Under the pieces are notes generated by a model that did not search any database, was not told the origin of the DNA, and saw only the letters and a list, made by a program, of their open reading frames with translations. DNA of 64,000 nt from a virus: IMG/VR virus record IMGVR_UViG_3300019458_000027, positions 25,191-89,190 of that record; one strand, 5' to 3'. Position 1 is the first letter of the stretch, and each line of letters starts with the position of its first letter. This document shows positions 9,497 to 33,743 of the stretch, one piece after another. The position numbers were made by a program, and so were the translations under genes.

Positions 9497-9802
9497 TTAC
9501 ATTACCTTAATCCACGTTCTTGTTTTAGAATCATAAATGGAGGTAGCTTTGTAGTTTGTTGGTCTTGTAACCCCGCCTCCACGTGCCTTCTCTTGAAACA
9601 TACCAAATTTCTTGGGGTCGTCAACCTTAAACTCCATATAGCCCCCATCCTCCATATGCACCCTGCCAGTATGGGTTCCAGTCCGCTCCATTCTAGTACC
9701 ACGAACGTCGGTCATTTGCTTCTTGGTCATTGTTTTGTTGTGCCGATATTGACCAGGTTTTGCCGACATGGATTGTGGTCTGTGAACTTCCCGCCGTGCC
9801 AT
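9497..9802 (-). CDS. Basic hypothetical protein
   Basis: 101 aa, TAATG coupling with MuF gene. Confidence 0.6.
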   Translation of the reverse strand: MARREVHRPQSMSAKPGQYRHNKTMTKKQMTDVRGTRMERTGTHTGRVHMEDGGYMEFKVDDPKKFGMFQEKARGGGVTRPTNYKATSIYDSKTRTWIKVM

Positions 9803-11679
9803 TACTTTTTCTCCCTGAAATTAAGATGATATTTTACATTACCAATCTGGGAATAATTGTCTTTCGCTTCGGGATCAACCTCAAGATTGTCTACACGACC
9901 CACTTGTTTGCTACCATCCTTGAATCTAAGTTCTGCGTTACCGTCATCCAGTCGGATTACAGCATCTTGATCTAAGACTCTGAAAGCTATGTTTTCCAAC
10001 CTGTCGGCATTTTCAGGACTAACACTTACAATAAAGCTAGTTTCTTCTTTCCCGCCCCAAACACCCTTTTGGCGAACTACATCATCAGAATATAATTTCA
10101 ATGATTGTTCCAGGTTGGCGGTTTTCCTAGCATTCTCTTCGGGAGTTAGATTTCCTCTCTCAGCCGACACTATAATCTTAGTTCCCGATCCCAAATGTTC
10201 TTTTACTCCACCAGATTCGGAGAACCGACCCGATTCATCCCTAGGATGAAGTTCCTCAATCCAACCTTTGGTCATTGACACCAATTTCTCGTACAATCCA
10301 CTAGTAGAAGGGAAGTAAACGGTAATAAGTTTTTCTTCAACCTTGGTTACTGGTTTAGTCTCATGGGTGTCAGGGTCGTAAATTCCAACTATCCATTCAG
10401 CTTTCACATGCGGGAGGGAGAAAGCCGAAGGTTCTCTCCCTGCTACGCTCAGAGCCAAATCCTCCTCAGCATTGGACTTGAAATAATCTTCGGGAATCTT
10501 GGCTACAACCGTAACTCCCTTTTCCCCTTCTGGAACGACCTCAGAATTGGTAGCATAAAAGGAAGCCCATACCTTGCTGGTAGTTACGAACACCTTATTG
10601 GCTCTATCTCCCGTATAAAAACTATCATCAAAATTTCTATACTTTCCTGAAACAATTCCCTCTTTTAAAATGGAGGCCGATCTTTCTAGGGTGGTGGAAT
10701 GATAAACTTCTACCTCACTGAATTTCCCCGTCTCGTCCCTTGGGTGCTGCGCTTCATCCCAAACTTTCATCATCTTTTCGGATTCATCATCTGGATGAGG
10801 GGCAGGTTCGAAAAGCTCACCACATCGGCAATTGGTAAGGCATTCGTTGGTTTGATACTCTGTAGCAAAGTGATCTAAAGTCATCCAAACGCCTTCGTTA
10901 CCTTCGCACCCATCACAAACCTTGTCGTCCTGGACCGTATGCCAATATCCACCCTCGTACTCGACTTCTCCCTCTTCGGTACTGGCGGCCTTGACCGATT
11001 CAGAAAACCCTAGGGAGAAAGCTCCCAATGCCGCCATAGCGTACATATCCAAACGGCTGAGCTTTTTGTCCATAACACCTTCAAGGGCTTCACTGTACGC
11101 TACTTCGTCGGGATATTCGCCGTCGATCACTCCGGCGAACTCAGCATAGAGATCGTTGTTAACAAAATTGTCGAATTTCTCTTGATGTTCCTCTATAAGA
11201 GATTCGATTTCTTCCTTATCTTCGGGGGAAAGCTCATCGTCGATCGGTTGCCCCGTCAATCCCTGTCCCCTCTCCTTACCAATTTGATAAAGACGGTCAA
11301 AAGAATTGGAGGCCGCTAAACTAAAAGCTAGAGCTAGCTCTGCTAAATGTTTCTGTACAATGCTTTTCTTCTCTGGTCGGTCGTCTGATTCAAATTCGGC
11401 CTTGGTAAACTTGCGAACTCCCTCTTCTGAGAGGATCGTTGCTTTAACTTTGTTCCATTCATCACGGAGCTTGTTATCAAGACCCTGCAAAGCACGATCA
11501 ATCTTTCTCTTTGCGTCTAGGGGAACGATTCGTCTCTTGAGGGCCTTTTGGATACCACCACTAAACTCGATGGCCTCTACCAACGGATATTGAGTAGTAG
11601 AGGTTATGTAGGTTACCGAGTCGTTAAACTCTTCCCTAAGTTTTTCAATCGGCGTTGGCTCATCAAGATAAATGCGCAT
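9802..11679 (-). CDS. MuF-like head morphogenesis protein with C-terminal ART-like and SAM-lyase-like domains
   Basis: WHTVQDDKVCDGC...NCRC MuF signature; two HPRD tags; YHSTT..SILKEGI/VFVTTS ART-like core; VSAERGNL...EET...DQDAV SAMase-like core. Confidence 0.8.
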   Translation of the reverse strand: MRIYLDEPTPIEKLREEFNDSVTYITSTTQYPLVEAIEFSGGIQKALKRRIVPLDAKRKIDRALQGLDNKLRDEWNKVKATILSEEGVRKFTKAEFESDDRPEKKSIVQKHLAELALAFSLAASNSFDRLYQIGKERGQGLTGQPIDDELSPEDKEEIESLIEEHQEKFDNFVNNDLYAEFAGVIDGEYPDEVAYSEALEGVMDKKLSRLDMYAMAALGAFSLGFSESVKAASTEEGEVEYEGGYWHTVQDDKVCDGCEGNEGVWMTLDHFATEYQTNECLTNCRCGELFEPAPHPDDESEKMMKVWDEAQHPRDETGKFSEVEVYHSTTLERSASILKEGIVSGKYRNFDDSFYTGDRANKVFVTTSKVWASFYATNSEVVPEGEKGVTVVAKIPEDYFKSNAEEDLALSVAGREPSAFSLPHVKAEWIVGIYDPDTHETKPVTKVEEKLITVYFPSTSGLYEKLVSMTKGWIEELHPRDESGRFSESGGVKEHLGSGTKIIVSAERGNLTPEENARKTANLEQSLKLYSDDVVRQKGVWGGKEETSFIVSVSPENADRLENIAFRVLDQDAVIRLDDGNAELRFKDGSKQVGRVDNLEVDPEAKDNYSQIGNVKYHLNFREKK

Positions 11680-12791
11680 TACTTTTTCTTTTCGGGTTTG
11701 TCTTCTATTCCTGATTGAACAATCATGTGCCGTCTAGCACCCTCATAATCACGCCCTTCAAACCCTGTCCTACGGGCTAGATCAACTACTTTCTTTTCGT
11801 AAACCTTCATGTGGCGATCCGTTTCCTGCTTTACCTTCTCATCGCCTTTTGGAAGACCAGCAATCGAGTCCGCTAAATAACGGCCATAATTAGACGCCAT
11901 AAACTCGGCTGCTTTGTCTTCGGCGGCTGTTCCCCTCCCTGCATAGCGTTCTCCTACAGCAGACTCTACAGCTTGGTCGTGTTGTTTATCTCGCTCAGTA
12001 GCCGTCCCATAATAACCCCACTTGGATGGTCCACCATCGGGTTCACGACTCTCGAATCGACCTCGACTAGGCTCTTCTTTTGAACCGCCTGATCCTTCAC
12101 CGAATTTTCCACTGGCATCCCGTGGGTGCTTACTTTCGTCCCACTCCTTACGAAGGTCGGCTAATTTCTTCATAGTGCTATCAATGAGACCCTTTTTCTC
12201 TTTCCGATCTTCTAGGTGTTGCTCGGCCATCATATAAAGAGCATCGGCCATATTCTCCCGCATTTCAGGATCATTTATGCTCATATCACGGATTTTGTCC
12301 ATAGCCAATTCAGCAACTTCTCTTAGAGACCACTCATCCCTTTCGGCTTCCTCCTGCTCTTCGTCGGATAAGTAAGGGAGAGCATTTTCTTTATCATCAT
12401 AGATTGAGTTCGCCAGGTTTTCCTGGGCTACTTCATATAATTCTTTGTCGCCAGGAATCTCGAATCCAGAAGCCACCGCTCTTTGAACGGCCTTTGCGGC
12501 GTCATCCTCAGGGGACCCAGGTTTCCCTTTAAAATAAGGTTGTTCTAGCCACTTTCTAGCTACCCTCATAGAGGTAGCCGCTCTCGCTCCCGTAGCTGCC
12601 CGTTCTTGACTTGGGGTTCTGCCTGACGGTTTCGCCCCACCCGTACCCTCACCAAATTTCCCACCCTCTCCACGGGGGTGCTTGGATTCGTCCCACTCGC
12701 CCTTATTAAGGTCTTGGTTGGGAATCTCGATTTCAGTTCTCTTTGCTACGGGACCAAAGGGATCTTTTAAAATTGCATATCTCTTTCCCAT
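11679..12791 (-). CDS. HPR-tag multi-module putative head cargo protein
   Basis: Start set at MGKRY (AAGGAGG RBS); two EWDESKHPR tags; WGYYGT...GRYLAD domain; lies between portal and MuF. Confidence 0.7.
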   Translation of the reverse strand: MGKRYAILKDPFGPVAKRTEIEIPNQDLNKGEWDESKHPRGEGGKFGEGTGGAKPSGRTPSQERAATGARAATSMRVARKWLEQPYFKGKPGSPEDDAAKAVQRAVASGFEIPGDKELYEVAQENLANSIYDDKENALPYLSDEEQEEAERDEWSLREVAELAMDKIRDMSINDPEMRENMADALYMMAEQHLEDRKEKKGLIDSTMKKLADLRKEWDESKHPRDASGKFGEGSGGSKEEPSRGRFESREPDGGPSKWGYYGTATERDKQHDQAVESAVGERYAGRGTAAEDKAAEFMASNYGRYLADSIAGLPKGDEKVKQETDRHMKVYEKKVVDLARRTGFEGRDYEGARRHMIVQSGIEDKPEKKK

Positions 12792-12801
12792 TATTCCTCC
12801 T

Positions 12802-14604
12802 TTACTTATCCTGAAATCCAATTAACAAGGTTGCTTGAACACCTTGATCTTGGAGGGACTTCACGGTGTTGTGTAGAAGTTGGTATTGTTTCAAGACAGG
12901 TTTCCTTCTGTTTACCACAATTTTTACCCTCTTCTCTTTCAAAACTTCCTCTTCCTCGGTTTCAGGAGGGACCTCTTCTTCCTCAACCACAGGTACTTCC
13001 TCTTCCCCAATAGGTTTACCATTAGGTCCCATTTTGGGTGGTTCTGGAGGAGCTTCTCCTACAGGTGCAGGAGGTTCAACAGGAAGCTTGCTCAAACCTT
13101 CAACAGGAATTAAACCACTAGCGGTTTCAATGACCGGAACGTCGCCGCCGTCAATCGGTTTCAGTCCCAATTTTTGCCTTCTATCGTTTCTAGAAATGAC
13201 ACCAGACTTAATATCCTGAATATCAATAGTTGATTCTCTCGATGGGTCTCCCAAGTCGATATCCAGCCACTCGAATTTCACATCTCGGTAAGAGAACTCA
13301 GACTTTACGATCTCTCTGTTGTAGTGTTCCTCTAATAGGGTTAAAAGAGATTGAACACCACGGGCCTTGGACAATTTCTCTTGGACCTGCGCTACCCCAC
13401 CCCCACCAAGACCCCTGGAGGAATCCATGAATCCTAAATCCTGCGGAGAAATACCGTATGCAGCGCATTTCACTCCCATTGTCCATTTCAGGTAATCGAT
13501 CAACTGCATCTCTTTGTTCGTTCTGGTTGACATTGGAATAAACTTTGGGTCCTCAGAACCAGAAATGAACATCATGCGGTGCTGGCCACCCCTACCCTGC
13601 ACTTCGTTCTCCCACATAGCACGGAAGGAATCCAACTGATCGGAGTCCACGCCCTTTCCAAGATCAAATACCCCAGGGGGAACGTTGGAGTGCTTAAAGT
13701 AGTCAATTTGGTATTCGTCGGCAAACAAGGAAGCCGTGATAATGTATGCCGCCACTTCCAATGGGGACATTCCGTAACCACTCTGTTGCGGATTCTCCAT
13801 AATGTAGATAAGTTCTTCGGAACTAAACTCGGCCCGATTTATTCCCATTTGCTCCCAAACAAAAGCGGGTTCAGGTGGGAGTGGGGCCGTCATGTCTTCG
13901 TTTCGATAAATCTTGACTTCATGCCCTGGAATGGTGTATAACTCAGCAAGTTTACCCGTAGCCGACCAGTTCTTTACGAGAACCCCCGAATCGTAAATTA
14001 AAAGATCATCTAGGATTTTCTCCTGCAAAGTCCTCCATGTCCTATCCGTACTGTTAGGGCATTCAAAGATTCTTTTGATATCGTGCCTGTGGGATTCAGC
14101 TTCTTGCTTAATTCTTCGTTTGAGGGATTGAATATACCACCTAATTATGGGCTTTTTATCGGCTTCTGGACCTTTCATAATTCTGACTAAGTTTTTACCC
14201 ATCTCGGTAACAAGAACCTGATCTAAAGCTTCGGAAATGAACTCTTCTTTCCCAGTGCTATACGGTTGCAAATTCGAGATGGCTAACTCTTCAAAACGGT
14301 CTAACTCCGCTTCCTGATTCTCGGTATCGGGAACAATATCCCACTTAATCTGACTGATATAAGACTTAATAGCTCTTCGAATTGCCCACGTGATAGGATC
14401 AGTATTTGCTAGTCTACCCAAAGTGGCGGTAGATAGCGTGAACATCTTTTGCTGTTTCTTGTTGATGGTGGTATTCACCAAACGGTACATACCCTTCCTG
14501 GGTTCAGGGTCAGGGAGATTCCCACGATCTCTTTTATAGATATCGTCCCGTTTGAAGTCCGTGGGGAGGGTTAAATCCTCCATCTTGAAGTCTTTAAATG
14601 GCAT
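12802..14604 (-). CDS. Portal protein
   Basis: 600 aa; DDLLIYDSG, YGMSPLEVAA, NVPPGVFDL, AYGISPQDLG, SRNDRRQKLGLKPIDGGD; Pro/Glu-rich tail. Confidence 0.85.
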   Translation of the reverse strand: MPFKDFKMEDLTLPTDFKRDDIYKRDRGNLPDPEPRKGMYRLVNTTINKKQQKMFTLSTATLGRLANTDPITWAIRRAIKSYISQIKWDIVPDTENQEAELDRFEELAISNLQPYSTGKEEFISEALDQVLVTEMGKNLVRIMKGPEADKKPIIRWYIQSLKRRIKQEAESHRHDIKRIFECPNSTDRTWRTLQEKILDDLLIYDSGVLVKNWSATGKLAELYTIPGHEVKIYRNEDMTAPLPPEPAFVWEQMGINRAEFSSEELIYIMENPQQSGYGMSPLEVAAYIITASLFADEYQIDYFKHSNVPPGVFDLGKGVDSDQLDSFRAMWENEVQGRGGQHRMMFISGSEDPKFIPMSTRTNKEMQLIDYLKWTMGVKCAAYGISPQDLGFMDSSRGLGGGGVAQVQEKLSKARGVQSLLTLLEEHYNREIVKSEFSYRDVKFEWLDIDLGDPSRESTIDIQDIKSGVISRNDRRQKLGLKPIDGGDVPVIETASGLIPVEGLSKLPVEPPAPVGEAPPEPPKMGPNGKPIGEEEVPVVEEEEVPPETEEEEVLKEKRVKIVVNRRKPVLKQYQLLHNTVKSLQDQGVQATLLIGFQDK

Positions 14605-14605: not shown

Positions 14606-15019
14606 TTATTTTTCCTCTACTAAAGCTCTTGTAATCCCCACCACAACTTGGTGTTCTATTTTCCCCAACTGTTTGCAGAGAAACTCTTTACTATTTTTGT
14701 CCGAAACGTAAGAATTGATCGTGTCTGTTATAGATTCCATTAGAAGGTTAAGACGAGCATGAACTAATTCATGCACAACAGTATTCTCTGTCTCGTTTGG
14801 CTCTTCCTTCAAATACTTCTCATTAATGTAAATCTCGACTTCTTGTTTTTCTTCCGAGGTGATCACCTGGGCGTAGTCGTGGGTTGTGCCATCGTCGTGT
14901 TGCAAATCCTCCATATCCTCAGGTTTTACAATATGAACTATGTACTTATAATTGCCGATTCCCAGTCTGTTTGCCCACGTCTTTACTGATTCTGTCAACT
15001 TGGCTTCTCGCTTGGTCAT
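14606..15019 (-). CDS. Putative zincin-like metallopeptidase
   Basis: VVHELVH (HExxH) after short beta strands. Confidence 0.55.
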   Translation of the reverse strand: MTKREAKLTESVKTWANRLGIGNYKYIVHIVKPEDMEDLQHDDGTTHDYAQVITSEEKQEVEIYINEKYLKEEPNETENTVVHELVHARLNLLMESITDTINSYVSDKNSKEFLCKQLGKIEHQVVVGITRALVEEK

Positions 15020-15500: not shown

Positions 15501-16520
15501 TTAACGAAATGCGTCGGGTTCTGGAGTGGCCTGGTAATACGTGCCAACTCTGTAACTATCAGACACCATTCCCATACCAGCAGGAGGGGTCCTGTGCGGG
15601 TTCTTGGTGGGTTCTTGGTGCTTCTGACCAAAAGCAACGTCCCCCCGATGGGGTTCCTTGGTATCCTCTTTGACTTTTTTTGGTGTCGGGGGACCACCCT
15701 GAGTTTTGGGAGCTTTCGTCGCCTCTCGATTTCTCGGAAGGGCTTCTCCAAGAGTTTCCCTAGACGGTTCCCACACTAGAGAATCTGCTTTTTCGGTCTT
15801 CGGTTTATCTTTTGGTTCTCTTTGAGCGATCATACGTTGTACGGCGTCCGACTGACCCCCATGATATTTTCCATCGCCAAGAATGTAACCCCCGTCTACT
15901 ATATCGTCGGGGTCAAGATCGGCGTTATTGACCACATCTCCATGATGAAGGGCTTTGGGATCGGCGTAAATAGTTCCGTCTTTCATCTTTATAGCGTAAC
16001 TATGACGACCAATTCCACTCCACTTTGGGTCTTTGGGGTCAAAACGATATTGGGAAGCTCCACCACCTACCCCAGATTCCGTAAATTTCCCACTTTCGTC
16101 TCTTGGGTGTTGCTCCTCTTCGAAAGCTTTATTCATTCTTAATCTTCTATCTCTCCGAAGGATATACTTCAAATCCTCCAGAGGAATTATAGCTTCGCTT
16201 TGCTCTTCCCCTTCAATATCTATCGGAAGCACCATAAAGACCGCTCCCTCGTCATTCATTCGGGTGTAAACCAGTCTATTTTTGTAGCCCCGATCATACC
16301 CTCTTTTCCCTAAAAGTCCTTTATTCCTACCCACACTATCCCGCAAGTGATGAAGGGTGAAGATACCGGGACCCCCGATGGCCATATCCTCTTGGAGATC
16401 CTCTCTGACCAGTCCCAGACCGGATACCTCGGCCGTGAGGATACCTTTGCTGGTCGTAAGATTATCTCTTAGTTTTTCGACTTGTCTTTTTAGAGCTAAG
16501 TTTCTTGCCAGGGTGTCCAC
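15501..16520 (-). CDS. Putative head cargo protein with capsid-like N-arm and HPR tag
   Basis: Start reassigned to GTG 16520 (AAGGAG 7 nt upstream); KGILTAEVSGLGLVREDLQEDMAI; AFEEEQHPRDESGKF. Confidence 0.7.
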   Translation of the reverse strand: MDTLARNLALKRQVEKLRDNLTTSKGILTAEVSGLGLVREDLQEDMAIGGPGIFTLHHLRDSVGRNKGLLGKRGYDRGYKNRLVYTRMNDEGAVFMVLPIDIEGEEQSEAIIPLEDLKYILRRDRRLRMNKAFEEEQHPRDESGKFTESGVGGGASQYRFDPKDPKWSGIGRHSYAIKMKDGTIYADPKALHHGDVVNNADLDPDDIVDGGYILGDGKYHGGQSDAVQRMIAQREPKDKPKTEKADSLVWEPSRETLGEALPRNREATKAPKTQGGPPTPKKVKEDTKEPHRGDVAFGQKHQEPTKNPHRTPPAGMGMVSDSYRVGTYYQATPEPDAFR

Positions 16521-16614
16521 GCTTAATCTCCTTAAGGCAAACGCAGGAAAAAGTAATACTAGCATCGCTAGAGCCGGTAATGGTTGTCTGGGGTTTCATA
16601 ATATAGTGTTTCAT
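16462..16614 (-). CDS. 50 aa basic peptide
   Basis: TAATG-coupled to HAD gene; not in ORF track. Confidence 0.35.
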   Translation of the reverse strand: MKHYIMKPQTTITGSSDASITFSCVCLKEIKRGHPGKKLSSKKTSRKTKR

Positions 16615-18255: not shown

Positions 18256-19908
18256 TTATTTGGCTTTTGCCTTTACCGTTACATACCAATGCTGACTATT
18301 GGCAACACTGGCCCCACCTCTAAAAGGCGCATCGTGCGTTCCATAATTGACTACCTCATGATCAATTTTAGCGGATTTAAGCCCTGCAGTTACTTTATCT
18401 CTAAAGTCCTCGGCAGACTTCCCGTAACTATAGAAGAATTGCCGTCTAATTACAAGATTTCCAGATTTGTCCTTCCCCACCGAATCTGGGTGCACCCCCG
18501 CATTCTGTAGTGAAGTCTTCACGCTAGCTGGTGATAGGGTCTTTGGAGTCGGTGCTGGCCCTTCTTTTGGTTCCTTCTCGCCCCTAAAAGGCGGTTTATC
18601 GTAATGACCGGCGGTTGCCTGATCATAGGCTTCTTGAGCTTCTTGTCTTTCACTCTCGGTGTATCGATCCCTGCTCTCCCCTGCTCCTTCGCCAAATTTA
18701 CCATCGGGATCACGGGGATGCTTTGCCTCATCCCACTCTTTTTGAATTTTATCAAGCTCAAGATCGGACAATTCTTTGTTTCTACTAGCGAGACTAATAG
18801 CGTCCCGTGCTCTATCAAGAGCTTTAGTTACTTTCTCGTCCTTCACGCCCATATCATGAACATCTTCAGGCCGTGGATGAAGCTCTCTATCCGATTCTTT
18901 CTGATTCTCAGCATAGTCCTTATATACACGATCGATGACTTCTGACATTGATTGAGTATCCTGTTCGCTATACTCGGCGTCATCGTCCTGTTCGTAATCA
19001 CGAAGCTCATCGGCCAGATGCCTGCCATAACTAGATCCCAAGAAATCCTCCACCTCTTGATTGGTGAGGTCCATATACTCCAAAGAATCGGCCACAAACT
19101 CATCATGATCGGAGTTCCGATCTGTCGCCACACTAAAATAGCCCCAATCTTTCAGCGAAGCCCTTTCTGGAGTTGCCAAATCCCTCATATGCTCTCGAAG
19201 GGGCTTATCTTCTTTTCCTGCGCCCCCACCTGCTCCTTCACCGAATTTCCCACTCTCATCCCGTGGGTGTTTACTCTCATCCCACTCTCCTTTGAGAAGG
19301 GCCGACAAATCACGAAGTTGATCAATAAGTTTGGTGGTGTGCTTTCCTTTGTCCTCGCCGTGGGTCGTTCTCACGTTCTCGTTCTGGTATTCCTGCCCAT
19401 CTCTAGAACCAGCAGAACCCCCCGCACCAGGGTCATAATTGATCCCTGTTATTGGATTCGTACCAATAGCGTCGGGCTTAATACCAATGTCGGCTTTATT
19501 AAGATCATCGGCTAGTGGACCCAAAAACTTCTTTTGGTGGATAAGGGGATTTCCTCTCCAATCAAAGATCGGTCCGGATTCTCCTGTGAAGGAGTGCTCA
19601 GGATCGGTCGTTGCTCTTTCCTCTTCTTTAATAAGATCGGCATACTCGTTGACGCATTGCCCACCAACACCCTTGATCATGCCCCGATCTCCGATAAAAG
19701 CAGGATTACTAATGTCTCTACAAAGGGAAGCTAAATCATCAAAGAGTTTTCGTACCCACTTCCCCTTAGATTTCTTATATTTGGCTTTGGCAGCTGACCA
19801 AGCAATAGCGGAAGCTGTACCTTTGTCCTTCCCACTAGAAACAGCGGATCGGTAAGCTCCCTCTAAAATCCTATTAAGCCCCGAAGGGCCTCCTTCTACT
19901 TGAGGCAT
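18256..19908 (-). CDS. ChaB-domain protein with two HPR-tagged modules
   Basis: N-terminal RILEGAYRSA...ASAIAWSAAKAKYKKSKGKWVRK (ChaB pattern); EWDESKHPRD, EWDEAKHPRD. Confidence 0.7.
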   Translation of the reverse strand: MPQVEGGPSGLNRILEGAYRSAVSSGKDKGTASAIAWSAAKAKYKKSKGKWVRKLFDDLASLCRDISNPAFIGDRGMIKGVGGQCVNEYADLIKEEERATTDPEHSFTGESGPIFDWRGNPLIHQKKFLGPLADDLNKADIGIKPDAIGTNPITGINYDPGAGGSAGSRDGQEYQNENVRTTHGEDKGKHTTKLIDQLRDLSALLKGEWDESKHPRDESGKFGEGAGGGAGKEDKPLREHMRDLATPERASLKDWGYFSVATDRNSDHDEFVADSLEYMDLTNQEVEDFLGSSYGRHLADELRDYEQDDDAEYSEQDTQSMSEVIDRVYKDYAENQKESDRELHPRPEDVHDMGVKDEKVTKALDRARDAISLASRNKELSDLELDKIQKEWDEAKHPRDPDGKFGEGAGESRDRYTESERQEAQEAYDQATAGHYDKPPFRGEKEPKEGPAPTPKTLSPASVKTSLQNAGVHPDSVGKDKSGNLVIRRQFFYSYGKSAEDFRDKVTAGLKSAKIDHEVVNYGTHDAPFRGGASVANSQHWYVTVKAKAK

Positions 19909-19917: not shown

Positions 19918-22035
19918 TTAATCCAAAGCTAATTGCAGAACCCCGGCGAGGGGTTCAGTTATCGTATTCCCACGCCCTGCATTATAAAGAATAGACCGTT
20001 CATCCTCAGTTAACACCCGTTTCCAGAAACCGACCTCATCGATGCGACCATTCATAGCATTTGGGGTGGTGGGAAATGCCGGATTTATTCCTATGGCGAA
20101 CGCAGAGGCGGTAGAATTTATCGAATCGTCATGAAAAGCGGTCTCCACAGGTCCGTTATCAACCTGCATAGAAAGGAGATCGGCATCAGGATCATGCCAC
20201 GCTACTACAAAATACCATCTCCCTATCTGAATGGCTCCAGTAGAAACATAATTTAAATCAGAATCGTTGGTAGGAGCACCCCTAGTACCAAATTGGAATA
20301 AGATAGGTCCTAAGTCTGTAGCGGTTTGTAGAAAATATTCTACGGCGGAAGCCCCACCCGAACCAAACTTAGCAACCATAGTTTGCCCATTGCTGACGGA
20401 ATCGAAGTAGACCCAACAAGCGAGGGAAAATGGCACAGTCCCAGGTCTAAGTGGCGTAATATCCGCTCTACTGAGATACTCGGCGTTTGCCGCCGTAAAT
20501 TGCCCTGCTGATCCTACTTTTCCAGGGTTAAAAGTAACGGTATTATTGTCGGTTAAATCCTTCTTTCTGGTGTAGGAGTTTCCTAATCCAGAATTGTAAA
20601 GATCCTCTCTTTCTTTAGCCGTCAACAACCTCTTCCAAAAACCAACTTCATCAATTCGGCCATCCAAGGTCTGACTATCTTGGTTATTGGTACGACCCAG
20701 TTCAAATGGTGCTGTACCATCATTTGGTACAAGTCCAGCGGTTGCTGTTGACTCTATTATTCCGTTATTAATCTGTAGATTTATGGTATTAGCAACAGAA
20801 TCATGCCAAGCCACTACAAAATACCAGGTGGCATTTGCAAGAAGTACCGTCGAATTAACGGTTACAAAAGTACCGTCTGATGCAAATACACGCCATTTAA
20901 ATCTACGTTTTGTTTGATCCCCATCCAGATCGGTTTCGAAAAGATCGTATTCTCGATTGGGTGCTACGCCGGCCTTTGAAAGCATACCAGAAGTAACCGA
21001 TACATTATCGAAATAAATCCAACCGGCAAAAGTAAAATCAATGTCTCCCACAGAAAGATCGGCATTATCAGCAACCGAAAGGTATTCAATATTGGCCATA
21101 GTGAATTGCGCTGCTTTAACTTTTGTTCCTTGATTTTGAGTAACGGTATTATTGTCGGTAAGATTGCTTCCAGGAAGATAGGTGTTTCCTCTACTTGCTA
21201 AATAAAGGTCTTTACGCTCCCTCTCGGTAAGGACTCTTTTCCAAAAACCAACTTCGTCAATTCGGCCATCCCAAGGACCGGCAACTCCTAGTGAGCCGAT
21301 ATTAAAGGGGCCGGTCAAGTCGGAGATGGTTAGAGTCTTAGTTACACTATCTACCGCCCCGCCATTAACCTGAATATTAATAGTGTTTGCTGTCTCATCG
21401 TGCCAACCCACAACGAAGTACCAAACTCCAGTGGACAGAGTACCGAAAGAATCTGCTGTTACAAATTCGGAAGCATCTATTAAATCTTTTACTAGAAACT
21501 GAAATTTATTAAGACTTCCACTTACCCGAAGTTGCCATTCGTCTTTCCCACCAGTGTTATCCCCTTTGCTAGCTATGACTCTGGTGGTTCCGGTGCTATC
21601 GAGGTAAACCCATGCACAAATAGTAAAGTCAATCTCTCCAGTAGAGAGAGATGCATTGTCAGCTATCTGAAGATACTCGACGTTAGCAGCTACGAATTGC
21701 GCTGATTTTCCCCTTTTTCCATCAGCTTGTGTAACTGTGTTGTTGTCTGTAAGATGGTTAGAACCTTTTGAATCAAATCGGGTTCCGCTCGTCTCTTCTA
21801 GTTTCCAGTATGCTACCAAACTCTCTGACATTTTCTTGGTTCGGTCTACTGCAAATCGGTCTGTGGTTTCATCTTCTCTTGTTCCTGATGCTTCGTCTAA
21901 AGTCCAATAGCCAAACAACTCGTCGGTCAAGGTCCGGTTCGTATCAAGCTCGAAATGCCCTCCCCACCTATCTCTACGAATCCCACTAGTTTCTTCTAGC
22001 TTGTAATAGGCTTTAAGATCGGTAACTAAGGGCAT
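19918..22035 (-). CDS. LamG/concanavalin-A-like repeat protein (3 domains), putative adhesin/fibre
   Basis: Repeats of DFT.xxWVY, WYFVVAWHD, INIQ.N.G, DGRIDEVGFWKRVLT. Confidence 0.8.
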   Translation of the reverse strand: MPLVTDLKAYYKLEETSGIRRDRWGGHFELDTNRTLTDELFGYWTLDEASGTREDETTDRFAVDRTKKMSESLVAYWKLEETSGTRFDSKGSNHLTDNNTVTQADGKRGKSAQFVAANVEYLQIADNASLSTGEIDFTICAWVYLDSTGTTRVIASKGDNTGGKDEWQLRVSGSLNKFQFLVKDLIDASEFVTADSFGTLSTGVWYFVVGWHDETANTINIQVNGGAVDSVTKTLTISDLTGPFNIGSLGVAGPWDGRIDEVGFWKRVLTERERKDLYLASRGNTYLPGSNLTDNNTVTQNQGTKVKAAQFTMANIEYLSVADNADLSVGDIDFTFAGWIYFDNVSVTSGMLSKAGVAPNREYDLFETDLDGDQTKRRFKWRVFASDGTFVTVNSTVLLANATWYFVVAWHDSVANTINLQINNGIIESTATAGLVPNDGTAPFELGRTNNQDSQTLDGRIDEVGFWKRLLTAKEREDLYNSGLGNSYTRKKDLTDNNTVTFNPGKVGSAGQFTAANAEYLSRADITPLRPGTVPFSLACWVYFDSVSNGQTMVAKFGSGGASAVEYFLQTATDLGPILFQFGTRGAPTNDSDLNYVSTGAIQIGRWYFVVAWHDPDADLLSMQVDNGPVETAFHDDSINSTASAFAIGINPAFPTTPNAMNGRIDEVGFWKRVLTEDERSILYNAGRGNTITEPLAGVLQLALD

Positions 22036-23490
22036 TTAGACCTCCACCAACTCTTTCCCAAAGGCGGGAGACTTCGATTTCAAGATTGCTCTGACTGTGT
22101 TTCCCCTTCCGGCGTTGTAAAGATCAGAACGTTCTTGGGAAGTTAAAACCCGTTTCCAGAATACAGCTTCGTCTATCCTTCCATTCCAAAAATTGGATGG
22201 CGTGGTGTCAAGATTTATAGCTCCAATTCCTAAAGATGAAGTCCCAACAAAAACCCCTAGAGTGTGAGAGGAAGAATCTATGGTTCCATTATTAATTTGA
22301 ATGTTGATAGTATTAGCTTCGGGGTCATGCCATGCCACAATAAGATGCCATGAAGCGGTTGATGGGGAACCAAAGCTATTGGCAAGTAAGGAGACGATAC
22401 CGCCTGGTGATCCATCGTTGTCCACAAAGAACCTAAACCTGTCCTCTGAGTTTCGGTAGTCAATTCCAAACTCTCGTTGGTCAGTGGAATCGTTACTTTT
22501 AGTGTATATAGCCATGTTCCCTGGCTTGCTATCTAAATATACCCACGCCGACACCGTAAAACCTATATCGCCCGTTTTGATTGCGGAATTATTGGCTCGG
22601 TTAAGGTATTCACTGTTCGCCCGTACAAATTGCCCCGCTCGACTCCTGATCCCCGTGTTTACCCCAACTGTGTTATTATCGGTCAAACTTAACGACCTGG
22701 TATAAGAATTTCCTCTCCCTGAATTATAAAGAAGGGATCGTTCCTCTGCTGTCAAGACTCTTTTCCAAATTCCTACTTCGTCAATACGCCCATCGTGGAA
22801 ACCACCATGGGTAGTTGGTTCATTTCCCATAGTAAACTCATGAGTGCTATCAAAACTCCCGCCGCTTCTACTCGTAGAATCTATCGCACCACCATTAATT
22901 TGAACATTCATTGTATCATTAACCGAATCGTGCCAAACAACAACAAAGTACCAAGTATTAATAGATAAAATAACGGTGGATGACAAAGTGGTGGAATTGA
23001 TTCCATTGGCAACTACAAACTCAACAATAGGTCTTGTACCCCCCAACCCAGTGGCGTTATTGACTCTAACGAGATATTCATTTTGTGCGGCGACGTTGGA
23101 ACTTCCCTTTGCAACGAAATTGAACGCCGTATCTCCGGAGGACGGCGGCACTGAATCCATATAGAACCAGAACGCTATCGTAAAATCTATATCACCCATA
23201 CTAATATCAGAATTGTCTGCAACACTAAGATATTCACTATTGGCCCGTGTAAATTGCGCTCCCCTAACTTTCTTACCAAGTGCTTGAGTTACTGTATTAT
23301 TGTCGGTAAGATGGTTGGTTCCCTTTTCGTCCTCCCTGGTTCCGCTTAACTCATCCAAAGTCCAATAAGCCACCAGATTATTAGGAAGGGTGTTTCTAGC
23401 GTCCCGCTCGAATTTGTTGCCCCAGGCGTCAAATCTGGTCCCGCTCGTCTCATCCAATTGCCATAACGCTTTAAGATCGGAAGTTAGCAT
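22036..23490 (-). CDS. LamG-like repeat protein (2 domains)
   Basis: Same repeat motifs; own GGAG RBS. Confidence 0.8.
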   Translation of the reverse strand: MLTSDLKALWQLDETSGTRFDAWGNKFERDARNTLPNNLVAYWTLDELSGTREDEKGTNHLTDNNTVTQALGKKVRGAQFTRANSEYLSVADNSDISMGDIDFTIAFWFYMDSVPPSSGDTAFNFVAKGSSNVAAQNEYLVRVNNATGLGGTRPIVEFVVANGINSTTLSSTVILSINTWYFVVVWHDSVNDTMNVQINGGAIDSTSRSGGSFDSTHEFTMGNEPTTHGGFHDGRIDEVGIWKRVLTAEERSLLYNSGRGNSYTRSLSLTDNNTVGVNTGIRSRAGQFVRANSEYLNRANNSAIKTGDIGFTVSAWVYLDSKPGNMAIYTKSNDSTDQREFGIDYRNSEDRFRFFVDNDGSPGGIVSLLANSFGSPSTASWHLIVAWHDPEANTINIQINNGTIDSSSHTLGVFVGTSSLGIGAINLDTTPSNFWNGRIDEAVFWKRVLTSQERSDLYNAGRGNTVRAILKSKSPAFGKELVEV

Positions 23491-26441
23491 ATTAGAAGCT
23501 CCGTATCCTTCTCGAAGATTAAAGATCGGGTTCTTGGTTTCTTGGTTATAAGTGCATTACCACGCCCCTGCAAATATAAATCACGACGCTCCTGGGCTGT
23601 CAATATCCGCTTCCAGAACCCTAACTCATCAATAAAGCCATCCCATCTGCTAGCGTTTCCTGAAGTATCGGCACCCACAGTAAGAGGTTCTGAGGTAAAG
23701 TCTGGGACACCTATAGTCGCAACTGAATCTATAGCCCCGCCATCTATCTGAATGTTTACAGTGTTGGCAACGGAATCATGCCACCCAACTACATGAAGCC
23801 ATTGTCCTATCGGTGGAGACCCGAAAGAATTAGCAGGAACGGTTCCAACTATGGTGCCACTTCCTAGGCCAAAGATGGTAAATTCAAGTCGATCCAGAGA
23901 GCTATTATACCGCATTCGATATTCTCGACTTCCAGTGGTTGGATCGGACTTAGCAACGATCGTCATAAATGTGGCCTTTGACTCGAAGTAAATCCAAGCG
24001 GAGAAGGTGAAATCTATATCCCCAACGGAAACAGAAGTATTACTGGCTAAGGACAGGTATTCACTGTTGTCAACTTCAAAGTCCGCTGCATTCTCCCTAA
24101 CCCCTGCTATTGTGGAGCCAACGGTGTTGTTATCAGTCAACTCTAGCGATCTAGAGTAAGAATTGGCGTTTCCTGAATTATATAAGTCCGAACGCTCTTT
24201 CGCTGTAAGGGTACGCTTCCAAATACCGATCTCCTCTATTCTACCGTCCCAATGCTTGTCGATAGTCCCCAGCACGTTTCTTGCTCCAATGATGAGAGAA
24301 TTGCTGGTCCGCTGGGTGCCTTTTTCATGAGACGCCGACATTATCCCGTTATTGTTGACTTGAAAAAACAATCTGCCCTTAATCCCGTCGTACCAAGCTA
24401 CTAGGAATAACCAAGTACCTGTGGTTATCGTTACTCCAGCGTTGCCTTCTAGAGTAGTAAAATCTGCGCCATTCGATATGGTAAATTGCCAAATGTAGGT
24501 TGGCGTGTTTGGAGAGTTATTAGTGAGAGATATAGCATACTCTGAAGCCACGCTTCCGGCCTGAGCTTCGCCTTTATGAATCAGTTGGTGAACGTCTCCT
24601 GGAAGGGAATCGATATAGACCCAACAGGCAATAGTAAAATCTACCCGCCCTGAAGCCAGACCAACATCATCATTATCTGGGAGGGATAAATATTCCGAGT
24701 TAGCTTTGGTAAATTGCCCAGCTTTTACTTTCTTCCCTGCAGCTTGAGTTACTGTATTGTTATCAGTAAGATGATGGCCGCCGTGATATGGGTTGCCGAG
24801 GCCATCATTATAAAGGTCTTGACGTTCTTGGGCGGTAAGGACTTTCTTCCAAATTCCGACCTCATCGATTCGGCCATTATGACGGTTTTCTTGACCAGTG
24901 CTGGTGAACACCGCACCCATCTCGAAGGGATGAGAACTATCGTAGCTTCCGCCATTCCAAGATGTGCTTGCTATCGTCCCGTTGTCAATCTGTATGTTGA
25001 TGGTATCGGCTACAGAATCGTGCCAGGCAACGATAAAATACCACTGTCCTGTAACCTGAGTCCCATCGGCGTTTACGTTCGCAAAGGAGACATTGTTCCC
25101 AACATGAAGGACGAACCTAGTTCCATTCCAGTGGATATAATACTCAAGGGTCTTGGTAACGTTCCCATCGCCTTTGCCTAAGATTGTATTCCCCCCTGTA
25201 AAGGAATCGATAAATACCCAACAAGCGATGGAAAAGTCAATATCACCCATAGACAGGGCAGCGTTGTCGGTAATTGATAGGTACTCAGTGTTGGCTGCGA
25301 CAAATTGCGCTGCTTTGCTTACCTTCCCGTCATTTCGGGTTACGGTATTATTATCAGTAAGATGGCTAGAACCCTTGGAATCTATCCTGGTTCCACTCGG
25401 CTCCCCCAATTGCCAATACGCCACTAGACTTCGGGTGAGTGTTCCATCCGTGTCTTTTTCGAAATAGCTTACTTCGTCCTGTCTTGTGCCAGAAGCCTCA
25501 TCGAGGGTGTAATAGGCCGAAAGTCCGTCTCTAAGACTTCCAACTGGAATCCTCCTACCTGGAAAGAATGTGTTACCTCTTCCCCTCTGGTAAAGCTCTC
25601 GACGTTCGGAAGACGACAGCACTTTCTTCCAAAAACCTAACTCATCAATCCTACCGTTCATGAACTCCTTTACCCCGCCACCCCCACTTTCGGTTACAGC
25701 CCCTACCAAAAATTGCGTACTGCTGGAAAAAGCCGCCCCAGTGGTGGAAACAATTACTGGACTTCCTCCATTCACACTAATGGCTATCTGATTGTTCACT
25801 GCGTCATGCCAAGCCACTACAAAATACCAGGTTGCTGTGGTAAGTGCCGTTGGCCATTGTGCGTCGGCACCAGTTCCAGTGTGACCCAGGACTATCTTGT
25901 TGTCATTAGCATTTATCTGTAAGAGATACTCCTGATTGGGGGAACCAATTTCATACTTTGTTACTACGTTGAAAGAAGAACCAGCAATGGATGGAAGGGA
26001 ATCTAGGTAAATCCAGCAAGCGATGGTGTAGTCTATGTCGCCTGTCGTAAGATCACTGTTGCTGGCCCGGCTTAAGTATTCGCTGTTGGCTTTGGTAAAT
26101 TGGGCGGCCGGTCCTATAATCCCCGAACTTTGCGTTACGGTGTTGTTATCAGTAAGATGACTTGATCCTTTAGAATCTCGACGGGTTCCTGAGGTCTCGT
26201 CCAATTTCCAATAGGCCACCAATCTGTCGGCCAATGTAAGACTGGGGTCAACGTCGAATATACCAGGATCGCTACCCCCCATAATAGCCGTCCTGCCTTG
26301 ATTACAGTCGGTGTCTTTCTCGAATACTCCTCCCCAAGCCCCAAAACGGGTTCCGTCAGTTTCTTCAAGACGGAAATACGCTTTCAGATTTGTTCTTAGG
26401 GAATCGTTGGTATCGTATTCAAAGACAGGGGACTTAGGCAT
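23484..26441 (-). CDS. LamG-like repeat protein (4 domains)
   Basis: Same repeat motifs, four LTDNNTV bodies. Confidence 0.8.
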   Translation of the reverse strand: MPKSPVFEYDTNDSLRTNLKAYFRLEETDGTRFGAWGGVFEKDTDCNQGRTAIMGGSDPGIFDVDPSLTLADRLVAYWKLDETSGTRRDSKGSSHLTDNNTVTQSSGIIGPAAQFTKANSEYLSRASNSDLTTGDIDYTIACWIYLDSLPSIAGSSFNVVTKYEIGSPNQEYLLQINANDNKIVLGHTGTGADAQWPTALTTATWYFVVAWHDAVNNQIAISVNGGSPVIVSTTGAAFSSSTQFLVGAVTESGGGGVKEFMNGRIDELGFWKKVLSSSERRELYQRGRGNTFFPGRRIPVGSLRDGLSAYYTLDEASGTRQDEVSYFEKDTDGTLTRSLVAYWQLGEPSGTRIDSKGSSHLTDNNTVTRNDGKVSKAAQFVAANTEYLSITDNAALSMGDIDFSIACWVFIDSFTGGNTILGKGDGNVTKTLEYYIHWNGTRFVLHVGNNVSFANVNADGTQVTGQWYFIVAWHDSVADTINIQIDNGTIASTSWNGGSYDSSHPFEMGAVFTSTGQENRHNGRIDEVGIWKKVLTAQERQDLYNDGLGNPYHGGHHLTDNNTVTQAAGKKVKAGQFTKANSEYLSLPDNDDVGLASGRVDFTIACWVYIDSLPGDVHQLIHKGEAQAGSVASEYAISLTNNSPNTPTYIWQFTISNGADFTTLEGNAGVTITTGTWLFLVAWYDGIKGRLFFQVNNNGIMSASHEKGTQRTSNSLIIGARNVLGTIDKHWDGRIEEIGIWKRTLTAKERSDLYNSGNANSYSRSLELTDNNTVGSTIAGVRENAADFEVDNSEYLSLASNTSVSVGDIDFTFSAWIYFESKATFMTIVAKSDPTTGSREYRMRYNSSLDRLEFTIFGLGSGTIVGTVPANSFGSPPIGQWLHVVGWHDSVANTVNIQIDGGAIDSVATIGVPDFTSEPLTVGADTSGNASRWDGFIDELGFWKRILTAQERRDLYLQGRGNALITKKPRTRSLIFEKDTELLIC

Positions 26442-30407: not shown

Positions 30408-30421
30408 CTTTCCTCCTTTTC

Positions 30422-30970: not shown

Positions 30971-30988
30971 ACGCCACCCTTTAAGAGA

Positions 30989-31201: not shown

Positions 31202-31282
31202 TTGTTTCACCCCTTTAAAGGTAAATGATAAACAGAGCATGAGGTAAACTCAAGCTCTATGTGGCCACCCCATAAAACAAAA

Positions 31283-32115: not shown

Positions 32116-32156
32116 TGAAATCATCTCCTTTAAATTAAGATTGCGAACTTCCCTCT

Positions 32157-32207
32157 TTACTGCGCCCGTCTTGCGTTGGGATCACACTCCTGGAAACATT
32201 GTTTCAT
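32157..32207 (-). CDS. 16 aa micro-ORF with CxxxC
   Basis: MKQCFQECDPNARRAQ behind AAGGAGGAG RBS. Confidence 0.3.
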   Translation of the reverse strand: MKQCFQECDPNARRAQ

Positions 32208-32216
32208 AGCTCCTCC

Positions 32217-33743
32217 TTAGGTTCGGTAAGCCCCGACCCCATCATTCGAGAAACTACCTCCTGCTTGTCCTTGTGCGCCTCTTGTTGGCCCGAAGCGGAA
32301 ATCCTGATTCTTAGGCCCCCTTTTACCCTCAGGATCGAGAGCGGTAATTGAGTAAGGTGGTTCTACCCCTTCATGAGCACCTGTAACCTTCTGAGTCTCT
32401 GCCTTTCTAGCTAGGTAATAGCTAGACTTCTTCTTATCAGCGTCGTATCGTTCTTCTACCCTCAATTGACCACGATCAACCAATGATAACAACGCTGCCC
32501 TTTCATTCTTATTCAGCCATTTCAACGGGTCAGAATACATTAAGGGATTAGAGACAAATCCAAGCTCTAAACCCCCAGATGGCACATATCTGTCTATCAC
32601 ACCTTGTTCTGTCCTAGTCAAAGGTGCATTGGGGTCTTTACTAGCAAATTCTACATATCTGGAGCTAAATCTAGGTACGGCCCTCGCCTCGTCTAAAACT
32701 CTGCCGGAAACGTCTTTATGTTCTTCAGTTGCAGAACCTTCTCCAAACTTCCCATCAGAACTACGTGGGTGCTTGCTCTCATCCCACTCAGCTTTTTCGA
32801 ATTTCTCGCACACTCCACCGATTCTCTCTTCGTCTCCGCATTGAAGACACCGTGGGTGTCCGTTTGGGTGGGTCCACTCAGCAGCTTTAAACTTGTGAGG
32901 AAACTTAGCTGTCTTCTTATTTTCATTAATTAGTTCGGTTTCTTTGTCAGCAGCAGGGTTGCTCTTCCTCTTTGCCACCCGATGTAAAACGCTTCCATCA
33001 GCGTCTAAATCATCACTTGCCCAAACTCCATAACGATCTCTGGTCTGATCCCTCGTAAGAAAGCGTCCTTTATCATCAACAAACCCATCAACGGCTGCGG
33101 AGGTATCATTCATCTGACTACGATGCCGAACGAATAACTGACCATGAGGGGCTATATCATTTGCTATAAAAATCCTGCCACTATCGTTTATTGCGGGTCG
33201 CAGACCCGTTTCAGGTATTGTCCCCACAACCACGTTGAGCTTAGGTGAACCCTCGCCTCCAGAGAACCGACCTTTTTCATCCCTAGAGTGCTTGGCTTCG
33301 TCAAAGGCAGCTTTATCTATTGACTTTGGCTCTCGCTCCTTTGCCGTTTCAGTCCCCCTATCGTCGGCCATTACAGCGGGGGCTGTCTTATACCCCATTT
33401 CTTTAAGAGCATGATATCTATGGTGACCGTCTGTAAGCATTAAGCTTTTCTTGCCGTCATTATCTACCTCGGTTACAACTAGAGGCTTGATCTCCCCCGA
33501 TTCCTTGATCTTGCCTTTGATTTCTTCGACCTTATCCTTGTCGATATCTTTATTGTAGGGATTTAGGAGAACTTCGTTTAGATTGATATCGAGGGATTTC
33601 TTATCTAAGGGCTTTGCTACCGGAGGAGACACGGCAAGGTTCTCCTCTTGCTTCATATAGACGATTCCCCGATTTTTCGAGGAGGCGTTCCGTGCCCTCT
33701 CAATACACGCTTTTACATTCTGATCATACTCAAATAGTGGCAT
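32217..33743 (-). CDS. ParB/Srx-domain protein with two HPR-tagged modules
   Basis: KVEEIK..IKESGEIKPLVV...LTDGHHRYHALKEMG; AFDEAKHSRDEKGRF and EWDESKHPRSSDGKF. Confidence 0.75.
   Translation of the reverse strand: MPLFEYDQNVKACIERARNASSKNRGIVYMKQEENLAVSPPVAKPLDKKSLDINLNEVLLNPYNKDIDKDKVEEIKGKIKESGEIKPLVVTEVDNDGKKSLMLTDGHHRYHALKEMGYKTAPAVMADDRGTETAKEREPKSIDKAAFDEAKHSRDEKGRFSGGEGSPKLNVVVGTIPETGLRPAINDSGRIFIANDIAPHGQLFVRHRSQMNDTSAAVDGFVDDKGRFLTRDQTRDRYGVWASDDLDADGSVLHRVAKRKSNPAADKETELINENKKTAKFPHKFKAAEWTHPNGHPRCLQCGDEERIGGVCEKFEKAEWDESKHPRSSDGKFGEGSATEEHKDVSGRVLDEARAVPRFSSRYVEFASKDPNAPLTRTEQGVIDRYVPSGGLELGFVSNPLMYSDPLKWLNKNERAALLSLVDRGQLRVEERYDADKKKSSYYLARKAETQKVTGAHEGVEPPYSITALDPEGKRGPKNQDFRFGPTRGAQGQAGGSFSNDGVGAYRT

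Follow-up and report, generated by a model that had tools for sequence, protein, structure and literature searches.

Why should five late proteins of one uncultured phage carry the same short peptide in front of one domain after another? The window (the whole stretch of DNA that was analysed, 64,000 nucleotides) is part of a contig of 104,918 bp. Window and contig were scanned in six frames for [WFY]-x-E-x-x-H-[PS]-R-x3-G-[KR]-F, hereafter the HPR tag. Exactly nine matches are found, all on the minus strand and within five genes, against 6.6e-5 expected by chance in the contig (six-frame residue frequencies); the nine copies listed in the first-pass annotation are all present where it had placed them. 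Judged from sequence, the tag most likely marks enzymes that are carried in the phage head, cut apart there and then injected into the host. Packaged, injected phage proteins are the first weapons that reach the host. To our knowledge, the rules by which they are loaded are known only for T4 and P1, and descriptions of polyvalent proteins and MuF toxins have not yet gone beyond lists of domains.

The five proteins of this 105-kb phage comprise about 14 modules, nine of them headed by a tag. The gene order is TerL ... portal, g11679, MuF, protease, MCP, and all five tagged genes lie between TerL and MCP, in the late head/packaging block. Three of the five are 1-19 kb from the portal gene, though inside the TerL-to-MCP block.

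Table 1. Tags, tagged genes and neighbouring head genes, in window coordinates. The W/F codon of each tag starts at the higher coordinate. Tags are numbered by gene.
Feature	Coordinates	Strand	Remarks
Major capsid protein (MCP), SU10 type	6379..7398	-	PF17236; invariant [IL]-x-K-[AS] at residues 14-17
Prohead serine protease S78 (aa 1-165) + scaffold-like C-terminal part	7437..9179	-	PF04586; phrog_9427 4e-41
MuF-type head protein (aa 1-305) + two tag-headed modules	9802..11679	-	ART-like lead aa 321-471; S-AdoMet lyase aa 502-614
Tag 1, MuF aa 307-320	10720..10761	-	after MMK
Tag 2, MuF aa 473-486	10222..10263	-	after MTK
g11679, between portal and MuF	11679..12821	-	30-aa leader (Met at 12791), tag-headed modules of 185 + 155 aa
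Tag 3, g11679	12654..12695	-	after LNK
Tag 4, g11679	12102..12143	-	after LRK
Portal protein	12802..14604	-	PF04860 1.6e-30; phrog_12
SprT-like zincin, 137 aa	14606..15019	-	HELVH; PF10263 5.5e-5, below cut-off
g15501	15501..16565	-	N-terminal MCP N-arm copy, then one tag-headed module of 208 aa
Tag 5, g15501	16083..16124	-	after MNK
MCP N-arm mimic, aa 39-82 of g15501	16320..16451	-	BLASTP 63% identity over 27 aa
ChaB-domain protein (aa 13-54)	18256..19908	-	PF06150 4.3e-6, 27.7 bits vs cut-off 27; tag-headed modules of 184 + 160 aa
Tag 6, ChaB protein	19243..19284	-	after LLK
Tag 7, ChaB protein	18694..18735	-	after IQK
ParB_N-domain protein (aa 57-128)	32217..33743	-	PF02195 1.4e-7; NCBIfam parB_part; tag-headed modules of 173 + 191 aa
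Tag 8, ParB protein	33264..33305	-	HSR variant; after IDK
Tag 9, ParB protein	32745..32786	-	after FEK
Large terminase TerL	35583..37376	-	weak match, phrog_9 1e-7; upstream border of the block with all five tagged genes

The 14-residue motif is the core of an element of about 23 residues. Consensus: hydrophobic, small, K/A/G, D/E/A, [WF], D, E, x, x, H-P-R, x3, G, [KRQ], [FW], Gly-rich. Seven positions are near-invariant as peptide across phyla. Identical tag residues share the same codon in 44% of pairs (0.44), against 40% (0.40) expected from codon usage, and overall codon identity of the tags is 0.49 against 0.42; since these values are close to the expectation, selection acts on the tag peptide, as had been proposed from the varying codons. 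At the variable positions, from -9 to +11, agreement within one protein exceeds that between proteins by 0.15-0.29, and the flanks beyond show no such excess. Lineage-specific selection on the peptide is thereby indicated, which a shared partner would lead one to expect; another source of this agreement could be that the tags are adapted to a host partner. Both tags of the MuF protein are unstructured in the AF2 model (pLDDT < 50), which is consistent with a linear motif. A Gly/Ser-rich stretch follows eight of the nine tags, so the linker previously described after the tag holds with one exception, in which the tag enters an ART-like domain directly. No description of the tag was found in papers, in Pfam or NCBIfam models or in solved structures.

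The modules behind the tags are uniformly small in the form in which they would be released (154-208 aa). In the MuF protein, the 320-aa extension after MuF contains the ART-like lead and the SAM lyase. The lyase is assigned to the T3 SAMase type above the gathering score and over most of the model (PF23780, E 2.2e-11, 44.3 bits vs cut-off 28, model positions 1-126 of 133). The AF2 model shows an ordered N-terminal helical domain and an ordered lyase (pLDDT about 70-77 across aa 500-590), and the ART-like lead has ART-fold neighbours in the Atlas (scores 0.88-0.90). The domain names given earlier stand above the Pfam cut-offs for ChaB, ParB_N (31.8 bits vs 26.3) and S-AdoMet lyase. The match to MuF (PF04233) is below its cut-off (18.8 vs 29.6 bits), though the gene adjoins the portal gene, one gene downstream of it; relatives of the N-terminal part also adjoin portal genes in L006, L036 and L057 (phmmer, E 1e-49 to 1e-53). 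No immunity gene was identified beside the MuF gene; for the small gene that follows it downstream (9497-9802), no match was found.

The domains behind the tags, described as unrelated by the first-pass annotation, mostly are so; one module type occurs twice, as the second module of the ChaB protein and of g11679 (aa 183-333 and aa 202-349: 36.5% identity, E 1e-16). Most modules have no recognisable function, the effector leads being the SAM lyase, the ParB-like domain and the ART-like lead. The word effector is thus secure for the SAM lyase alone; to the ParB-like and ART-like modules it applies by analogy. Sequence comparison shows that the modules are portable as tag + domain cassettes. In the relative L006, the SAM-lyase module, which is here fused to MuF, stands alone as an ORF headed by a tag. 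The N-arm mimic of g15501 also matches the MCP family profile (hhalign, probability 90%, E 1.7e-6), and its homologue P0273 begins with this mimic too and is untagged; g15501 is a P0273-like protein with an inserted tag-cargo cassette.

The Lys formerly noted just upstream of every copy is present in 9/9, two or three residues before the aromatic residue, so that one or two residues stand in between. In all nine, M, L, I or F is found two residues before this Lys (hydrophobic-x-Lys, phi-x-K), a context found at 4.6% of all W/F residues in the long minus-strand ORFs of the contig. The rule also holds for 24/24 tags of the phage's clade (L006, L036, L057, P0010, P0014). In the MCP family, Lys is found in 89/89 homologues within [IL]-x-K-[AS], at the end of the N-terminal helix. 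Taken together, these contexts make cutting at Lys plausible; the MCP Lys may have a structural role, and the Lys upstream of the tags could be part of a binding motif instead of a cleavage site. The most likely candidate for cutting after phi-x-K is the S78 prohead protease, encoded here beside scaffold and MCP (PF04586 and phrog_9427). The SprT-like zincin is an alternative candidate processing peptidase. Four head protease families were searched for elsewhere (S78, S78_2, Mu-like [Mu-like_Pro] and DUF2213). At least one is encoded by 8/11 tag-bearing records, so an S78-type enzyme does not accompany every tag; none of the four was found on the contigs of L049 and L058 (complete, tag-bearing), nor in any of four phages with untagged polyvalent giants (0/4).

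The tag is found in at least 1,860 protein clusters, from phages and prophages of about a dozen phyla, with up to 18 copies in one protein. Its link to head genes extends beyond this phage: at 29 viral and 46 prokaryotic loci, the neighbours of tagged genes are TerL, portal, MuF, head protease and MCP, and fusions to portal or MuF occur. P0139: portal at 78-434, tags at 519 and 661, LPD3 after a tag. P0086: portal at 72-465, tags at 547, 756 and 1017. P0148: tags C-terminal to MuF. Elsewhere, tags follow portal or MuF domains in this way or separate effector domains typical of polyvalent proteins. The partner domains met most often in a census of 65 multi-tag proteins are ARTs, GNATs and Zeta toxin; others found there are NUDIX, topoisomerase I, PBECR3, MuF, portal and head protease. 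At every junction the tag is on the side of the cargo, even where a portal, MuF or protease anchor is present. Among 65 tags from prokaryote genomes, 32 start 0-3 residues after the start Met, as do several from IMG/VR; this is the same end that cutting after Lys would create here. Cleavage is thus not needed for the tag to work, and cleavage and tag function are separable. The polyvalent giants of P1, phi24B, F116 and Jess A have no tag, which therefore marks a subset that is processed or handled by a logic of its own.

In the proposed scheme, which as a whole is given an even chance, the tag heads each cargo module of capsid-internal 'polyvalent' proteins. The five late proteins would enter the procapsid, anchored by the MuF domain at the portal, by the MCP N-arm copy in the 15501 protein and possibly by the tag itself. 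A phage peptidase, most likely the S78 prohead protease, whose gene is the second one downstream of MuF, would cut after the Lys of hydrophobic-x-Lys, one or two residues before each tag. Nine modules of 154-208 residues would be freed, each with the tag as its new N-terminus, a form that free-standing cargo proteins of other phages have naturally. The tag would then be a short linear N-terminal signal read by a head component; it would keep or position the module in the head and/or ready it for exit. The modules would exit together with the DNA and be directed against the host at an early stage: SAM lyase, ART-like enzyme, ParB-like and ChaB domains and several modules without recognisable function. 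The interpretation given earlier is supported in part, by the late head block, the MuF fusion by the portal, the polyvalent context and the portable cassettes; the DNA binding that it suggested for the tag is unlikely, the peptide being nearly neutral and acid-rich. A wider claim is offered tentatively, at somewhat less than an even chance: for proteins carried in the heads of tailed phages, the HPR peptide would be an N-terminal address or handling signal, portable and near-universal, and a conserved component of the head would read it in phages of about a dozen bacterial phyla.

The tag might instead act during or after ejection, as a leader that threads the module through the portal/tail channel or as a signal to a conserved host factor (refolding, stability, localisation). 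Its place on the cargo even where a portal, MuF or protease anchor ensures loading favours this, as do the uniformly small size of the freed modules and the invariant core across about a dozen phyla, which fits a very conserved partner. However, free-standing tag-headed proteins share no other feature for loading, the giants of P1, phi24B, F116 and Jess A are delivered without a tag, and we know of no host-binding motif that resembles it; this explanation is considered rather unlikely. Somewhat less probable still is a tag that serves only as the primed-side recognition element of the processing peptidase (prohead protease or SprT-like zincin), separating modules and having no later role. The tag is always at module boundaries, the phi-x-K rule is obeyed and a head protease accompanies most tag-bearing records; zincin domains have been proposed as processing enzymes of polyvalent proteins (PMC5512222), and the local zincin has the HELVH motif. 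Against this, half of the prophage tags directly follow the start Met, with nothing there to cut off, the MCP site here is phi-x-K without a tag, and in two complete tag-bearing genomes none of the four protease families was found. About three residues, moreover, are enough for known prohead-protease sites such as the L/I-x-E of T4. A recombination junction for cassette shuffling (like the VENN boundary of CdiA toxins), or a conserved linker without peptide function of its own, is very improbable: cassettes are clearly swapped at the tag boundary, but a DNA junction predicts nucleotide conservation, and codon identity is at usage level while seven positions are near-invariant as peptide across phyla.

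If the peptide is indeed a shared start of modules, it would give a sequence handle by which capsid cargo (candidate anti-defence enzymes, toxins) can be sought in phage and prophage genomes of every kind, a concrete rule of processing and loading, and a possible tool to load chosen proteins into phage particles. If the address-signal reading is true, any enzyme given a tag behind the protease site proper to the phage would be loaded into the head, freed there and injected. Cargo delivery would then follow a general rule comparable to the signal peptide, open to engineered protein-delivering phages. For this phage, the prediction is that the SAM lyase is delivered as protein and not made after entry. 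The SAM lyase of T3 is a known counter to restriction and BREX.

Among known systems, the T4 capsid-targeting sequence (CTS) is a short N-terminal peptide that sends the anti-host proteins IPI-III and Alt into the head, from which they are injected with the DNA; the prohead protease gp21 cuts internal proteins at L/I-x-E (PMC9024508). Both peptides are short, and the HPR tag, like the CTS, would mark head-interior proteins, with a hydrophobic-x-charged site (here the candidate phi-x-K). The CTS precedes the cut and is lost on cleavage, whereas the HPR tag lies downstream of the putative site and would stay on the cargo; a T4-type CTS removed on maturation is rejected for this reason and because the tag starts proteins in other phages. 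The two have no sequence likeness, and the CTS is confined to T4-like phages. In the Dar system of P1, the N-terminal 30 residues of DarB suffice to load DarB and a reporter into the head, ParB-like DdrB is part of the packaged set, and no consensus among the Dar proteins is reported by the authors (PMC9024508). An N-terminal signal for large polyvalent proteins and a ParB-like member of the set would be shared with the present phage; the HPR tag is absent from DarB, and P1 has none of the four head-protease families.

Polyvalent proteins, for which packaging and injection are predicted, combine MuF, ART, ParB-like, NUDIX, GNAT, PBECR and peptidase domains (Iyer, Burroughs, Anand, de Souza, Aravind 2017, PMC5512222). 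This repertoire agrees with the domain census of tag-bearing proteins. Two or more unrelated conflict-system domains are combined here (MuF + ART-like + SAM lyase; ParB_N + two modules; ChaB + two modules), and the link to head-morphogenesis genes is found in gene order here and in portal and MuF fusions elsewhere. In a text search of PMC5512222, neither the HPR motif nor a linker nor any shared peptide at domain boundaries was found to be mentioned. MuF polymorphic toxins have an N-terminal MuF, proposed as a capsid-targeting domain, by the portal gene and a variable C-terminal enzyme (Jamet et al. 2017, PMC5576092; Bxa, PMC11699363). In these descriptions each MuF carries a single C-terminal toxin, and a boundary motif is not mentioned (PMC5576092; PMC11699363). 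In the present phage, by contrast, two modules follow MuF, and four further proteins are tagged without MuF. Encapsulin cargo-loading peptides are short and, by a flexible linker, tether unrelated enzymes inside an HK97-fold shell. They are usually C-terminal, differ in sequence and involve no cleavage or ejection; the likeness to the HPR tag, whose binding to the capsid is putative, is that of a short linear peptide carried by unrelated enzymes.

The tag, an HPR peptide, lies on a virus contig of 104,918 bp with 45.7% G+C, of which the window forms part. A six-frame scan with [WFY]-x-E-x-x-H-[PS]-R-x3-G-[KR]-F gives exactly nine matches, all on the minus strand and in five ORFs; 6.6e-5 are expected by chance from residue frequencies. 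The nine-fold repeat is thus real and far beyond chance. The coordinates and domain names of the first-pass annotation hold: S-AdoMet lyase, ChaB and ParB_N exceed the Pfam cut-offs. Its name MuF holds in part: the Pfam score is under the cut-off, but only g11679 separates this gene from the portal gene upstream. From the gene order (TerL to MCP), all five tagged genes belong to the late head/packaging block.

Features of the window. Rows from TerL to the MCP follow minus-strand order; other features are listed after them.
Feature	Position	Strand	Remark
TerL	35583-37376	-	first in minus-strand order; weak match
ParB-tag gene	32217-33743	-	after TerL
Three Laminin_G_3 paralogues	19918-26441	-	between ParB-tag and ChaB-tag genes
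ChaB-tag gene	18256-19908	-	between Laminin_G_3 paralogues and 15501 tag gene
15501 tag gene	15501-16565	-	between ChaB-tag and SprT-like zincin genes
SprT-like zincin gene	14606-15019	-	between 15501 tag gene and portal
Portal	12802-14604	-	between SprT-like zincin gene and g11679
g11679 (tagged)	11679-12821	-	between portal and MuF
MuF (tagged)	9802-11679	-	followed by a small gene, then the protease-scaffold
S78 protease-scaffold	7437-9179	-	just before MCP
SU10-type MCP	6379-7398	-	last in this order
MCP N-terminal hydrophobic-x-K motif	7330-7341	-	residues 14-17, Met at 7386
MCP N-arm block copied in 15501 protein	16320-16451	-	
Small ORF	9175-9462	-	just upstream of protease gene
Small ORF	33746-34048	-	just upstream of ParB-tag gene
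Genes downstream of capsid gene	2638-6228	-	three genes
PurZ-like gene	47802-48944	-	
SbcD-like and SbcC-like genes	46405-47616 and 48889-50550	-	flank the PurZ-like gene

Each of the nine tags is preceded by M/L/I/F-x-K, with one or two residues between the Lys and the aromatic residue; this context is found at only 4.6% of the W/F residues in the long ORFs of the contig. Eight tags are followed by a Gly/Ser-rich stretch and the remaining one runs straight into an ART-like domain. If the proteins are cut after each Lys, the nine resulting modules would each have a tag at their head and measure 154-208 residues. A SAM lyase and an ART-fold lead are recognised among them, and one module type has two copies, one each in g11679 and the ChaB protein (36.5% identity). 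For six of the nine, nothing usable is found in Pfam, PHROGs, NCBIfam or Atlas. In the AF2 model of the MuF protein (shallow alignment), both tags are unstructured (pLDDT < 50); such predicted disorder fits a linear motif and names no partner. A complex prediction of the protease-scaffold, the MCP and a 40-aa tag peptide scored 0.00, which is evidence neither way.

Gene conversion as the cause of the repeat is ruled out by the codon data. Among the nine copies, 44% of pairs of identical residues agree in codon (40% expected from codon usage); at 21 multi-tag loci the fraction is 0.49 (0.42 expected). As these values are near expectation, neither recent duplication nor gene conversion accounts for the likeness of the tags. 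Agreement around the His, from position -9 to position +11, is higher within than between proteins (86 proteins with at least three tags); the excess is 0.15-0.29, with a peak at the two residues before the aromatic residue, and is absent from the flanks. The functional unit measures about 23 residues. Its variable positions are tuned per lineage, which is what a single partner for all the copies of a phage would predict.

Among the prophage tags, 32 of 65 follow the start Met of a free-standing protein at a distance of 0-3 residues, as do several IMG/VR copies. Hence the tag works as an N-terminal peptide. Cleavage after hydrophobic-x-K in this phage would produce ends with the geometry of these free-standing proteins. 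Lys stands at this place before 24 of 24 tags in the clade formed by this phage, loci L006, L036 and L057 and proteins P0010 and P0014; in other lineages, the residues before the tag are of different types (R, D, E or A-A). The hydrophobic-x-K motif is also found near the N-terminus of the MCP. The Lys of the corresponding [IL]-x-K-[AS] of SU10-type capsid proteins is invariant in 89 of 89 homologues and the residues ahead of the motif vary; AF2 places it in the MCP at the end of the N-terminal helix, before a low-confidence stretch. For the SU10-type capsid family, this motif is a candidate site of cleavage on maturation. The SU10 structure paper (PMC9509320) gives no cleavage data for these capsid proteins.

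The first five large tag-bearing records each encode one head-maturation protease (S78_2, Mu-like_Pro or DUF2213, the last being so labelled by PHROGs). In a second set, a protease is found in two of five records, and two complete genomes lack all four families (these three and S78). None of these families is found in four phages with tag-less polyvalent giants, P1, phi24B, F116 and Jess A. The association of tag and protease (8 of 11 tag-bearing records including this phage versus 0 of these 4 phages, a small and non-independent sample) is suggestive and not universal. The SprT-like protein, of 137 aa and with a HELVH zincin motif, adjoins the portal gene and is a possible alternative processing peptidase.

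The cassette is portable. The SAM-lyase module is fused to MuF here; in L006, a locus of a close relative, it is a separate 208-aa ORF that has a leader, VAK and a tag of its own. The most conserved block of the MCP N-arm recurs as a copy in the 15501 protein (hhalign probability 90%, E 1.7e-6). The only homologue of this protein, P0273, begins with the same mimic and has the N-domain and the C-terminal tail in common with it; the tag and the middle module are absent from P0273. This comparison suggests that a cassette of tag and cargo was inserted into a protein whose imitation of the MCP N-arm probably gives it entry to the head. In the MuF protein of the close relative (L006:1529-5302, +), MuF and the first tag are separated by extra domains that by eye look HAD-like and RelA/SpoT-like. 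No tag divides these domains: some domain boundaries are untagged.

Other features of the contig are as follows. The PurZ-like gene strongly matches phrog_1211 (E 4.8e-72), the PurZ-type relative of adenylosuccinate synthetase that serves 2-aminoadenine (Z) genomes; Z may take the place of A in the DNA of this phage. The genes flanking it encode SbcD-like and SbcC-like nucleases. The tandem paralogues of 705, 484 and 985 aa (42-46% mutual identity), with repeated Laminin_G_3 domains, are bordered by the ChaB-tag gene and a tail-assembly-like gene. The two small ORFs are paralogous (36% identity over 52 aa, E 3e-6); the one scanned, beside the ParB-tag gene, has no family match. The genes downstream of the capsid gene have repeated segments in common (44-69% identity) and may encode decoration or fibre proteins. 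At the contig start, which lies outside the window, a run of T precedes 15 C and possibly marks an assembly end or a terminal feature.

No chain with the tag was found among solved structures by a tag profile search, and no Pfam or NCBIfam model covers it. In tblastn searches, the MuF protein and a 32-aa tag had no match in GenBank phages (BLAST is too weak for a motif so short), and an ART-PolyVal module had none in plasmids. Laboratory phages considered as carriers were rejected: phi24B gp47, P1 DarB, F116 p59/p60 and Caulobacter phage Jess A are all without the tag. Literature searches yield no account of it, and it is undescribed in the polyvalent-protein, MuF-toxin, Bxa and SU10 papers (PMC5512222, PMC5576092, PMC11699363, PMC9509320).

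Of 1.84 billion cluster representatives, 1,860 match the profile of the nine copies (E <= 1e-3); the largest tag-bearing proteins reach 7,334 residues and 18 copies. A strict degenerate DNA pattern has 66 matches in prokaryotes; the hosts include Bacillota, Actinomycetota, Pseudomonadota, Desulfovibrio, Treponema, Bacteroides, Planctomycetota, Verrucomicrobiota, Chloroflexota, Melainabacteria and others. Oligella sp. MSHR50489EDL, Acinetobacter modestus CCM 8639, Comamonas nitrativorans CCUG 45781 and Rhodoblastus acidophilus DSM 137 are candidate lysogens among them. At 29 viral and 46 prokaryotic loci, tagged genes mostly neighbour the genes for terminase, portal, MuF, head protease and MCP. 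Some tags are C-terminal to portal domains (P0139, P0086) or to MuF (P0148). Given the known topology of portals, a position C-terminal to the portal domain would put the cargo inside the head.

The first-pass annotation had proposed head cargo, cut at Lys, each piece being headed by a tag. This is the best available reading and is partly supported, from context and sequence logic only. The tagged proteins are likely virion-internal, and in this phage they are probably, with less assurance, cut just upstream of the tags. The tag itself might be a loading or retention signal, a tentative assignment; a main role in exit or in the host is unlikely. Across 65 multi-tag proteins, ARTs, GNATs and Zeta toxin are the most frequent partner domains; others are NUDIX, topoisomerase I, PBECR3, MuF, portal and head-protease. 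This set of partner domains is the domain repertoire of the polyvalent proteins (PMC5512222).
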